Shown: piece by piece, positions 24,348 to 26,076 of the stretch
How positions within the stretch are numbered: position 1 is the stretch's first letter
Layout: the number at the start of each line of letters is the position of its first letter
Origin: an uncultured Bacilli bacterium
GTDB lineage: Bacteria; Bacillota_I; Bacilli_A; RF39; UBA660
Assembly (NCBI GenBank): GCA_944358725.1
Contig: CALVRS010000059.1
Location: 1-47,713, forward strand
DNA length: 47,713 bases
Reading direction: 5' to 3'
The notes under the pieces: model-generated
The model's database searches: none
What the model was told of the DNA's origin: nothing
The model's input: the letters and a program-made list of their open reading frames with translations, nothing else
Made by a program: the position numbers and the translations under genes

Positions 24348-24890
24348 ATGAAAAATTTAATAGCGTTTATAGCGCCTAGTGGTTATGGTAAATCTACGGC
24401 AATTGAGATAATTAAAGAAAAATATGATATTTCAAATATAAAAATTGGAAAGCCATTATATGATTTACAGTATGAGTTTTATAAGAAGATTGGTAAAGAT
24501 ATTGGGAATGTTCAAGATGGGGAGTTATTACAATTTTTAGGTTATAAAGTTAGAAAGGAAAATCCTGATTATTTATTAAATGAATTTTATAATGAGCTTT
24601 GTTTTTGTGATAAAGAGATTATTACTAATGATGATTGCCGTCCAAATGATTATAAGTTTTTACAGGAATTAGGTTTTATTTTTATACGGATAAATGGATA
24701 TAAGAGAGATAGAGCTGATCATACGCAAATCAATTCTAAGTCGAAGTTAGAGTGGCAGGAAGAAATTTTGTGTGATTTTGAAATAGATAATTATGGCGAT
24801 TTAGATGAGTATAGAGAAAATGTTTTAAGGGTTATGGATGATGTTTTAGGTAAAAATAAAGTTAGAAAGAAGGTATTGTGTGTTAAATAA
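24348..24890 (+). CDS. P-loop kinase resembling phage (T5-type) dNMP kinases
   Basis: 'FIAPSGYGKST' Walker A. 'ITNDDCRPNDYKFL' and 'RADHTQINS' resemble the 'PDTRQ..E' and 'DTHITE' blocks of T5-type dNMP kinase, from memory of the family. Confidence 0.55.
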   Translation: MKNLIAFIAPSGYGKSTAIEIIKEKYDISNIKIGKPLYDLQYEFYKKIGKDIGNVQDGELLQFLGYKVRKENPDYLLNEFYNELCFCDKEIITNDDCRPNDYKFLQELGFIFIRINGYKRDRADHTQINSKSKLEWQEEILCDFEIDNYGDLDEYRENVLRVMDDVLGKNKVRKKVLCVK

Positions 24891-26076
24891 ATGTTATATT
24901 GTGCCTGTTCAAAAGGCTTGTAATTGTGATTGCATTTTTTGTATATCAAAGTCAAGAGATTATGATAAGGAAGATGAATTTTTAAAAGTGGATGATGAGT
25001 TTATAGAAAATATTAAGTTATTAAAAAGACGAGGAATTAAAAAAATTGAAATAACTGGTGGTGGTGAGCCTATGCTTCATCCAAATATTGAATTAATAGT
25101 AAGTATTATAAAGGAAATTATTTCTGATTGTTATATAAAGATATATACAAATGGTTTTATATTAAAGAAAGTTGAGGGAATTGATGAGGTTAATATTTCG
25201 CTAGTTAGTGATAATGATAGAGTAAATGATTATTTTATGAATCCAAAAAGTAATGTTTCATTTGCTGAAAGGATTGGCTATTATAGAGAAAGTTATCCAT
25301 TATCTAAACTTCGTCTTTCGATACCTTTGATGAAAGGAGGAATTGATAGTTTAGATAAGTTAAATGATTTAATTAATAGTACTTCTTGCTTTGTGGATGA
25401 ATATGTAGTAAGAACTTTATATCCACATTCATTAGTATATGAAAAGGATTATGTAGAATTTCCAATAGATAATGATAAGGTTATATATGAAAAAGATAAT
25501 GATGTTAGTGATTTTGATGGTTTAATATTATGGAGTGATAATCAATTTTATAAAGATTTTAATTTGAATTTAAAAAGATATTTATATGGGTATTTATTAT
25601 TGAAGCCTGATTCAGCAATTTATATAAATGAAATTGAGGAAATTATTAGAAAATTTGGTTTAGATGTTGTAAAAAAATATTTGATAAAAAATTTTGATGA
25701 AGTGGCTTTAGAATTTTATCAAGAGAAAGATGATGATTATAAGAAAGTTATTCAAAATCATGTTGATAATTTAGTATATTTATTTGGTAATGATGCTTTG
25801 ATTTATATTTTGGATGGTAATTATTGTTATCAAAAATTATTGGAAAAAGTTTATGATTTAAAGTTAGAAATTAGGAGGCAGTTAGGTTTTACGGAGAAGA
25901 AGCATGGCTATATTTTAAAAGATGGCAATATTTCGCATTTAAATTTATGTCATTGCCCTGATGCTATAAGTACTTTTTTTGAGCGTGATTTATCTAATAT
26001 TGATAGTTTTGATAAGACTTTACTTAGTGAAAATAATCAAAAGATTTTAAGAAAATATAGGAGTTATCATTTATGA
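24880..26076 (+). CDS. radical-SAM domain fused to a nucleoside-diphosphate-kinase-like domain
   Basis: GTG start overlaps the upstream stop. C14-x3-C18-x2-C21 ('CNCDCIFC') and 'ITGGGEPMLHP'. The C-terminal half (aa ~235-375) carries 'LLLKPD', 'EIIRKFGLDVV', 'ALEFYQEK', 'LEIRRQLG' and 'NLCHCPD' in NDK order, including the phospho-His position (H358). Confidence 0.7.
   Translation: MLNKCYIVPVQKACNCDCIFCISKSRDYDKEDEFLKVDDEFIENIKLLKRRGIKKIEITGGGEPMLHPNIELIVSIIKEIISDCYIKIYTNGFILKKVEGIDEVNISLVSDNDRVNDYFMNPKSNVSFAERIGYYRESYPLSKLRLSIPLMKGGIDSLDKLNDLINSTSCFVDEYVVRTLYPHSLVYEKDYVEFPIDNDKVIYEKDNDVSDFDGLILWSDNQFYKDFNLNLKRYLYGYLLLKPDSAIYINEIEEIIRKFGLDVVKKYLIKNFDEVALEFYQEKDDDYKKVIQNHVDNLVYLFGNDALIYILDGNYCYQKLLEKVYDLKLEIRRQLGFTEKKHGYILKDGNISHLNLCHCPDAISTFFERDLSNIDSFDKTLLSENNQKILRKYRSYHL

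Follow-up and report, generated by a model that had tools for sequence, protein, structure and literature searches.

A radical-SAM protein fused to a nucleoside diphosphate kinase-like domain in a predicted nucleotide-tailoring cassette of uncultured Bacilli

The 47,713-nucleotide stretch of DNA analyzed here (hereafter the window, meaning the whole stretch: positions 1 to 47,713 of contig CALVRS010000059.1, assembly GCA_944358725.1, from an uncultured Bacilli bacterium of GTDB lineage RF39; UBA660) contains an open reading frame (ORF, 24880-26076) that joins a radical S-adenosylmethionine (SAM) core (residues 1 to about 230) to a divergent nucleoside diphosphate kinase (NDK)-like domain (about residues 235-398), an architecture confirmed by the combination of fold, profile and residue conservation. 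The gene lies second in a set of four overlapping genes with coupled translation, the others being a kinase of the phage deoxynucleoside monophosphate (dNMP) kinase type and two paralogs of the dCTP deaminase family (DCD1 and DCD2). We lean toward the reading that these proteins would phosphorylate a pyrimidine nucleotide, modify it by radical chemistry, and then deaminate and dephosphorylate it to yield a modified pyrimidine nucleotide or nucleoside.

Architecture of the fusion protein

The start codon of the fusion ORF is consistent with the N-termini of its homologs, which share the pattern M-[LI]-x-K-C-Y-I in the alignment. Among 5.8 billion clustered proteins, 111 relatives of the fusion were identified, mostly 395-405 amino acids long and covering the whole query, and about 30 homolog clusters (558-571 amino acids) are triple fusions in which the kinase forms the N-terminus, ahead of the radical-SAM and NDK-like domains. 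The full-length AlphaFold2 model has a predicted local distance difference test score (pLDDT) of 92.9 and a predicted template modeling score (pTM) of 0.89. Residue conservation is given below for an alignment of 25 homologs that are 39-76% identical to the window protein. The initial annotation of this DNA, made from the sequence alone, had described the same ORF as a compact radical-SAM core followed by an NDK-like half with H358 at the phospho-histidine position; all of the motifs that it quoted are present at the residue numbers given, and both halves of the description are borne out by the profile, fold and conservation evidence.

One further database entry (P0107, 224 amino acids) begins as an aldehyde dehydrogenase and continues with part of the radical-SAM protein (VDEYVVRTLYPHS...); it is most probably a chimeric product of assembly and not a genuine fusion.

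The NDK-like domain

The C-terminal half contains the NDK blocks LLLKPD (with K242), ALEFYQEK (with Y280), LEIRRQLG (with R332) and NLCHCPD (with N355 and H358). Because the Pfam NDK model and an hhalign comparison with human NME1, in which the alignment was limited to the KPD strand and helix, were both too weak to decide the matter, a comparison of folds was needed. When an AlphaFold model of the domain alone (pLDDT 94.1) was compared with the PDB by Foldseek, all of the top 50 matches were NDKs (probability 0.99-1.00, E 7.7e-4 to 4e-3, template modeling (TM) scores 0.5-0.71), and the order of secondary structure elements is that of NDKs, with H358 located where the fourth strand ends. A profile built from 20 C-terminal domains likewise matched NDKs in 19 of its 20 PDB matches, including every match with E <0.4 (best match 8g2z_1M, E 3.2e-4); in these alignments KPD...Y is paired with KPD...Y and, separately, NLVHAPD is paired with the catalytic motif NLIHASD of the mimivirus NDK. 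Searched against 1.84 billion representative proteins, the same profile reaches eukaryotic and canonical multi-NDK proteins at E about 1e-6, with Pfam NDK present in 9 of the 39 matches scanned.

The NDK blocks are conserved among the 25 homologs, so that neither their conservation nor the predicted fold refutes the assignment made in the initial annotation. No substitution is seen at K242, D244, Y280, H294, F302-G303, K328, R332, N355, H358, P360 or D370, and conservation of D361 is at least 90%. The NDK catalytic set is thereby kept, in the form of the N-x-x-H-x-x-D motif (N355 and H358), the lysine of KPD (K242) and the equivalent of Tyr52 (Y280). As modeled, the C-terminal half is an NDK-fold domain that retains the Lys, Tyr, Asn, His and Asp of the phosphotransfer site. 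It has a longer helix 3 than canonical NDKs, bearing K328 and R332, and an extra C-terminal helix-strand-helix. Because R332 sits in a helix, its counterpart in the model is more likely Arg88 of NDKs than Arg105, and the invariant D370 may replace Glu129.

The radical-SAM domain

The N-terminal half matches Pfam Radical_SAM (PF04055) at 54.1 bits against a cut-off of 29.5 (residues 9-137). Its cluster motif, C14-N-C-D-C18-I-F-C21, is encoded at 24919-24942, and the SAM motif GGGEP (residues 60-64) lies within I58-TGGGEPML-66; C14, C18, C21 and G60-E63 are invariant, as is C5. Foldseek comparison of the full model with the PDB placed viperin first (5vsl, E 3.8e-11) and MoaA second (2fb2, E 4.3e-11), with the remaining radical-SAM enzymes in the list at 1e-8 or worse. 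The CX3CX2C motif, the GGE-type motif, the PF04055 score and Foldseek matches reaching E 1e-11 place the protein in the radical-SAM superfamily. Viperin and MoaA both use nucleoside triphosphates (NTPs) as substrates.

Membership in either of these two families was rejected. The viperin model NF038283 of NCBIfam scores 34.8 bits against a threshold of 180 and covers only residues 11-97, and the PADLOC models of prokaryotic viperins (pVips) score about 39 bits over residues 11-116 only. The MoaA model TIGR02666 scores 56.7 bits against a threshold of 284 (residues 10-110), and the second, C-terminal three-cysteine [4Fe-4S] cluster that characterizes MoaA is absent, C5, C14, C18 and C21 being the sole invariant cysteines among the 25 homologs. 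NCBIfam also gives the radical-SAM protein a weak match to NrdG2 (E 1.3e-5).

The coupled kinase and the DCD paralogs

The coordinates of the cassette, its regulatory features and comparable gene sets are collected in Table 1. The 3' end of the kinase gene overlaps the start of the fusion ORF by 11 nucleotides, the fusion stop and the DCD1 start overlap as ATGA, and DCD1 and DCD2 overlap by 20 nucleotides. The kinase is assigned to the phage-type dNMP kinases by the presence of GYGKST and by a full-length match to the PHROG profile 'deoxynucleoside monophosphate kinase' (phrog_139, E 4.5e-15, residues 1-175 of 180); none of its matches in Pfam, NCBIfam or PDB sequences extends beyond the P-loop.

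Table 1. Features of the radical-SAM/NDK-like cassette in the window, and gene sets of stand-alone NDK-like relatives in other contigs (coordinates of those contigs)
Feature	Position	Strand	Description
Sigma-70-type promoter TTGACA-17-TATAAT	23568-23596	+	12/12 match (promoter scan); 5' of the NrtR-like gene
Operator-like palindrome 1, AAGCGTTTTTGATACGC	23573-23589	+	Inside the sigma-70-type promoter
NrtR-like regulator	23614-24285	+	Nudix domain with degenerate Nudix box (REIYEKTG) and NrtR winged-helix DNA-binding domain
Operator-like palindrome 2, AAGCGTATTTGATACGC	24318-24334	+	Directly 5' of the ribosome-binding site of the kinase gene
P-loop kinase, phage dNMP kinase type	24348-24890	+	180 amino acids; Walker A APSGYGKST; phrog_139
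Radical-SAM/NDK-like fusion gene	24880-26076	+	398 amino acids; GTG start; Shine-Dalgarno-like stretch GAAAGAAGG 5' of the start
Radical-SAM domain of the fusion	24880-25569	+	Residues 1-230; PF04055, AlphaFold, Foldseek
NDK-like domain of the fusion	25570-26076	+	Residues 231-398; K242 codon 25603-25605; H358 codon (putative phospho-histidine) 25951-25953
DCD1, dCTP deaminase family	26073-26618	+	Pfam DCD E 2.1e-33
DCD2, dCTP deaminase family	26599-27117	+	Pfam DCD E 6.3e-37; NCBIfam dCTP_deam 114 bits
L021/L022 gene set	6001-9187		NDK-like, radical-SAM, phosphoribosyltransferase, Ham1/RdgB NTP pyrophosphatase, dTMP kinase-like
L023/L024 gene set	5059-6609 (L023)		Radical-SAM, NDK-like
L025 gene set	3269-6284		Radical-SAM, one unknown gene, NDK-like, methyltransferase

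DCD1 and DCD2 were aligned with the Methanocaldococcus jannaschii (Mj) bifunctional DCD-DUT, the Mycobacterium tuberculosis (Mtb) Dcd:dut (2qxx), and 14-15 orthologs each. DCD1 keeps the deaminase glutamate (TLEL; Mj E145 and Mtb E129), but an invariant GH[VI]GCxHxW replaces the xDxG[FWY]xG motif, with Asp changed to His, the aromatic residue to Cys and Gly to His (Mj Asp135, Phe138 and Gly140, respectively); all three positions belong to the sugar/water pocket. DCD2 keeps the Asp and Phe of motif III (VDIGF; Mj D135 and Mtb D119), but an invariant Gln replaces the catalytic Glu (LT[IL]Q); in the variant sequence of PDB 3gf0, the same alignment shows Gln in place of M. jannaschii E145. These complementary losses hold in every aligned ortholog, and each paralog lacks part of the catalytic residue set. 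We take the motif III aspartate of dUTPases to be homologous to Mj D135, and the aromatic residue to pack on the deoxyribose. In dUTPases, this aspartate is a ligand of the catalytic water (PMC5519681). The simplest reading of the alignments is that the pair represents a bifunctional deaminase-pyrophosphatase split in two, one member being a deaminase with a remodeled sugar pocket and the other a pyrophosphatase that would not deaminate; a mixed DCD1/DCD2 trimer is possible. The best PHROG matches of both paralogs are phage dCTP deaminases. The H-x2-C-x-H arrangement of DCD1 could alternatively be a metal site.

Conservation of the cassette

Scanning the GTDB species with one genome each yielded 12 loci, which all come from metagenome-assembled genomes (MAGs) of uncultured low-GC Bacilli/Bacillota, some of them under records labeled Muribaculaceae, and look-ups in metagenomes added further loci. 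The order of kinase, radical-SAM (with or without the NDK-like domain), DCD1 and DCD2 is kept wherever the contig spans the cassette (14 of 14 loci), with variable flanking genes. The NrtR-like gene lies 5' of the cassette in 11 of 14 loci (all except L009, L014 and L013, the last being truncated at the contig end), and a CobC-like histidine phosphatase gene (His_Phos_1) follows DCD2 in 12 of 17 loci compared (L003, L005-L013, L015 and L016). L001/L002 have a HisJ-type PHP phosphatase gene nearby (9362-10165) instead. In the window, DCD2 is abutted by a helix-turn-helix gene on the opposite strand (27120-27572); the presence of this gene where the phosphatase would be expected suggests that the end of the cassette has been truncated or rearranged.

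Four loci also contain an AAA_28 (NadR kinase-like) gene (L008 8824-9960, L003 8792-9208, L009 2729-4051 and L015 5162-6223), with CYTH-like motifs recognized by eye in the C-terminal half of the protein (RKFL..., LLEID); a search of the whole window did not find this gene. The fusion was not found in INPHARED (50,697 phage genomes) or in IMG/VR, and a phage origin was rejected for lack of a match in either. Four loci (L005, L009, L011 and L012) are titled 'uncultured Muribaculaceae bacterium', and their cassette proteins are 39-48% identical to the window protein, much like those of Bacilli MAGs; these labels may be binning or naming errors.

A candidate dedicated repressor

The protein encoded 5' of the cassette matches the NrtR winged-helix domain (Pfam NrtR_WHD, E 4.7e-20) and NUDIX (E 9.1e-14), and scores 117 bits against the NCBIfam NtrR equivalog, for which the cut-off is 400. 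The two palindromes listed in Table 1 are the only copies in the window of a 17-bp motif, AAGCGT[T/A]TTTGATACGC, of which 0.2 would be expected in 47.7 kb. Related G[CT]GTAT-N3-ATAC[GA]C sites are found at equivalent places in other loci, those resembling palindrome 1 at the matching relative place in L001, L005 and L011, and those resembling palindrome 2 on the 5' side of the kinase or fusion gene in L001, L003, L015 and L016. In L015 the regulator gene is 2.4 kb away, yet the site still precedes the kinase gene. The palindromes are probably the operator of the NrtR-like repressor, and their placement at the nrtR promoter and before the kinase gene, together with their recurrence in other loci, makes the cassette look like a dedicated, repressible operon. 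No riboswitch or leader was found near the operon with Rfam.

A wider family of NDK-like proteins beside radical-SAM genes

Profile searching of a representative library indicates that the NDK-like domain belongs to a clade of about 130 representative clusters, designated 'HCPD', which includes close stand-alone copies (P0114 and P0116), many proteins of 200-240 amino acids with the motifs KPD/HPS, LY, FFGN, K..IR and xHCPD, a fusion with a CoaE-like kinase (P0179), and a second, unrelated fusion of radical-SAM and NDK-like domains (P0188). The His, Asp, Tyr and one Arg are more than 90% conserved across this wider family, and the lysine of KPD is sometimes His (HPS).

In all three readable contexts of stand-alone NDK-like genes (L021/L022, L023/L024 and L025), a radical-SAM gene is beside or near the NDK-like gene; none was found nearby in L027. 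The contigs of P0125, P0131, P0188 and P0114 are too short to show gene context, and the comparison is confined to the others. Partner sets differ among the stand-alone genes, a second set consisting of BpsA_C, a SAM decarboxylase and a methyltransferase. Since the phosphoribosyltransferase of L021 already supplies a monophosphate, the pyrophosphatase of that operon most simply acts after the radical step, and the layout of the operon favors the order kinase, NDK-like protein, radical-SAM enzyme and NTPase. The L021 operon may follow the logic of the window cassette with non-orthologous parts: a nucleoside monophosphate (NMP) would be made, raised to the triphosphate, subjected to radical chemistry, and relieved of pyrophosphate by a 'house-cleaning' NTPase suited to the type of base. 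The association of an NDK-fold clade, its catalytic His retained, with radical-SAM genes points to a general bacterial way of feeding triphosphates to such enzymes.

A predicted pathway to a modified pyrimidine

From gene content, active-site residues and models, we infer the steps of the favored pipeline, their order, the substrate and the role as follows. The phage-type kinase would phosphorylate a pyrimidine (deoxy)nucleoside monophosphate, and the NDK-like domain, via phospho-H358, would convert the resulting diphosphate to the triphosphate adjacent to the radical-SAM site. The radical-SAM domain would then abstract a hydrogen atom and alter the nucleotide, most likely at the sugar, a place suggested by DCD1, which has lost exactly the residues by which the 3'-OH and the 2' position are recognized. 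DCD1, with its deaminase Glu and rebuilt sugar pocket, could deaminate the modified cytosine nucleotide, and DCD2, with a dUTPase-type Asp and no deaminase Glu, could remove pyrophosphate; in most relatives the CobC-like or PHP phosphatase would finally free the nucleoside. The pathway would end in a pyrimidine nucleotide or nucleoside in modified form, a candidate for an analog of the antiviral or antibiotic kind.

The initial annotation first put forward the idea that the radical enzyme receives its NTP from the NDK-like domain, in parallel with the pairing of viperin and CMPK2. This idea is strengthened by the context of the domain, namely a dNMP kinase that overlaps or is fused to the same protein, a structure resembling viperin and MoaA, and stand-alone relatives beside radical-SAM and NMP kinase genes; the NTP might even be channeled between the two domains. 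By analogy with viperins, the cassette could make an inducible antiviral nucleotide, or it could make a secreted or toxic nucleoside of which the triphosphate is kept low in the producer, in the way of the 4'-thiothymidine cluster thmABC (PMC12691670). A broader and more tentative proposal is that HCPD NDK-like proteins and radical-SAM enzymes together make up a class of systems for tailoring nucleotides that recurs but has so far gone unrecognized, its parts being an NMP kinase, an NDK-like protein, a radical-SAM enzyme and an NTP pyrophosphatase. The window cassette would then yield a new sugar-modified pyrimidine nucleotide or nucleoside, serving these gut Bacilli either as an inducible antiviral chain terminator or as a secreted antimetabolite, with a subfunctionalized DCD pair tailored to the unnatural sugar.

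Several observations weigh against the favored pipeline. Pfam NDK (PF00334) matches only residues 9-55 of the domain, with E 0.05 and 13.9 bits against a gathering cut-off of 27; Pro360 stands in place of NDK Ser120, making the motif HxPD as opposed to HGSD; and no Kpn loop with R105/T94 can be identified, a beta-hairpin being found at its place. L014-L016 encode a radical-SAM protein of 238-247 amino acids without the NDK-like domain in otherwise complete cassettes, and a search for a separate NDK-like gene near these cassettes found none, indicating that the domain is dispensable in some backgrounds. DCD2 retains the canonical deoxyribose pocket, a poor fit with a sugar-modified substrate. 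The window cassette ends at DCD2, and no phosphatase homolog was found anywhere in the window, all of which was searched. The flanks of the cassettes vary and show no recurrent neighborhood of defense genes, and the biological role may be defense, antibiotic production or metabolism.

Some of the same observations would suit an NDK-fold domain that is not a kinase, and instead serves as a nucleotide-binding or substrate-recognition module in place of the viperin C-terminal extension, or in oligomerization or regulation. The domain begins directly after the radical-SAM core (at about residue 230 of 398), where the viperin extension would fall, and its identity to NDKs is about 15-20%; the shortfall in the Pfam score, Pro360, the occasional His for the KPD lysine and the cassettes that lack the domain would also fit. 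Such a role is nevertheless considered unlikely, because substitutions are absent or rare at the catalytic His, the Asn at -3, the following Asp, the Tyr52 equivalent and the Lys, conservation of His, Asp, Tyr and Arg at more than 90% in the wider family is hard to explain without catalysis, and the domain recurs beside NMP kinases.

A reversal of the pathway is distinctly improbable. The DCD pair would convert dCTP/dUTP to dCMP/dUMP, the radical-SAM enzyme would modify the monophosphate, and the dNMP kinase and the NDK-like domain would raise it to a triphosphate for DNA, as in the synthesis of hydroxymethyl-dCTP by phage T4 (gp56, gp42 and gp1, with host Ndk); in phage pathways, dNMPs are supplied by the DCD/dUTPase family. 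The phage type of the kinase and the PHROG matches of DCD1 and DCD2 are in keeping with this order, but the fusion is absent from the phage collections searched, the cassette contains no polymerase, glycosylase or other DNA modification partner, a phosphatase follows DCD2 in the majority of loci compared, the Ham1 pyrophosphatase of L021 is easier to place after the radical step, and the nearest structures are those of the NTP users viperin and MoaA. Much less probable still is a function within an NrtR regulon in the metabolism of NAD/ADP-ribose, or as the radical-SAM activase of a glycyl-radical enzyme such as anaerobic ribonucleotide reductase. NrtR regulators classically sense ADP-ribose, and the conservation of the NrtR-like regulator with the cassette, the AAA_28 and CobC-like phosphatase genes of other loci, an ADP-ribosylglycohydrolase gene in the window (20544-21497) and the NrdG2 match might be cited in support; however, the conserved partners are enzymes of pyrimidine NTPs (the DCD family) and a dNMP kinase, the cassette includes no family of NAD biosynthesis or salvage enzymes, no glycyl-radical enzyme is encoded nearby in any locus, the ADP-ribosylglycohydrolase is not conserved elsewhere, and the regulator falls far below the NrtR equivalog cut-off.

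Surroundings of the cassette in the window

The ADP-ribosylglycohydrolase-family gene is located two genes 5' of the NrtR-like regulator, with a threonyl-tRNA synthetase gene between them; because it is not found beside the cassette in other loci, its proximity is probably a coincidence. No T-box or other Rfam element was detected 5' of the threonyl-tRNA synthetase gene at gathering thresholds. The window has a single tRNA gene, for tRNA-Trp(CCA) (19736-19811). A small predicted secreted protein (27671-28240) consists in part of three near-identical repeats (SDGTVYFWNxNYHEFRQ...) and has weak matches to beta-propeller blades of the RCC1/WD40 type, all below Pfam thresholds. Over the whole window (1-47713), G+C content is 25-33%, GC skew is strongly positive (0.17-0.5) throughout, and nearly all long ORFs are on the + strand.

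Comparison with known systems

To our knowledge, radical-SAM enzymes that rewrite NTPs are few, comprising viperin, MoaA and some enzymes of nucleoside antibiotic pathways, and each has opened new chemistry and antiviral or antibiotic leads. In the cassette described here, the partners spell out both the class of substrate (dNMP kinase and NDK-like domain) and the downstream processing (putative deaminase-only and pyrophosphatase-only DCD proteins, and a phosphatase). These clues, together with a candidate repressor that has recognizable operator-like sites, open the system to direct study by metabolomics in a heterologous host. No description of a radical-SAM/NDK fusion or of the cassette was found in the full-text literature, as covered with the exclusion of most subscription journals; only the analogous 4'-thiothymidine cluster (below) turned up.

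The domain shares with Ndk/NME proteins (PF00334) the ferredoxin-like fold, the order of elements, the KPD lysine of strand 1, the Tyr52 equivalent in FYxxK, and N-x-x-H-x-x-D with the His ending strand 4, but it stands apart from them in its fusion with a radical-SAM domain and its place in the separate HCPD clade. DCD1 and DCD2 are full-length members of the dCTP deaminase/DCD-DUT family (Pfam PF22769), both having its GRSSxGRxG phosphate motif and C-terminal lid, but the two catalytic functions of that family are apparently divided between them.

The oxetanocin genes OxsA/OxsB are presumably another comparable cassette. The thmABC genes of Photorhabdus, a 4'-thiothymidine cassette, pair a radical-SAM enzyme and a nucleoside/nucleotide kinase with a nucleoside triphosphatase that also protects the producer (PMC12691670). 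Like the window cassette as read here, thmABC is a small cassette that combines radical-SAM, kinase and triphosphatase functions to make a sugar-modified pyrimidine nucleoside. It differs in that thmB encodes a deoxycytidine kinase-like homolog of AbmG, in the absence of an NDK-like domain, a DCD pair and an NrtR regulator, and in its occurrence in Gammaproteobacteria; the likeness is drawn without established orthology.

The closest parallel is the pairing of viperin (RSAD2) with CMPK2, and of pVips with associated kinases (PADLOC includes a model for 'viperins associated with kinases'), in which a structurally similar radical-SAM enzyme is likewise linked at the gene level with kinases that bring a pyrimidine nucleotide up to the triphosphate. 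Viperin takes an NTP as its substrate and releases an altered nucleotide. In contrast, the radical-SAM core of the window protein is about 60 residues shorter and lies outside the viperin family, its kinase step is assigned to an NDK-fold domain in the same polypeptide, and the cassette adds two DCD paralogs, a phosphatase (in relatives) and a dedicated NrtR-like repressor. Relative to the viperin/CMPK2 theme of a radical-SAM enzyme with a substrate-supplying kinase, the novelty lies in the radical-SAM family, the NDK-like clade, the split DCD pair and the dedicated repressor.

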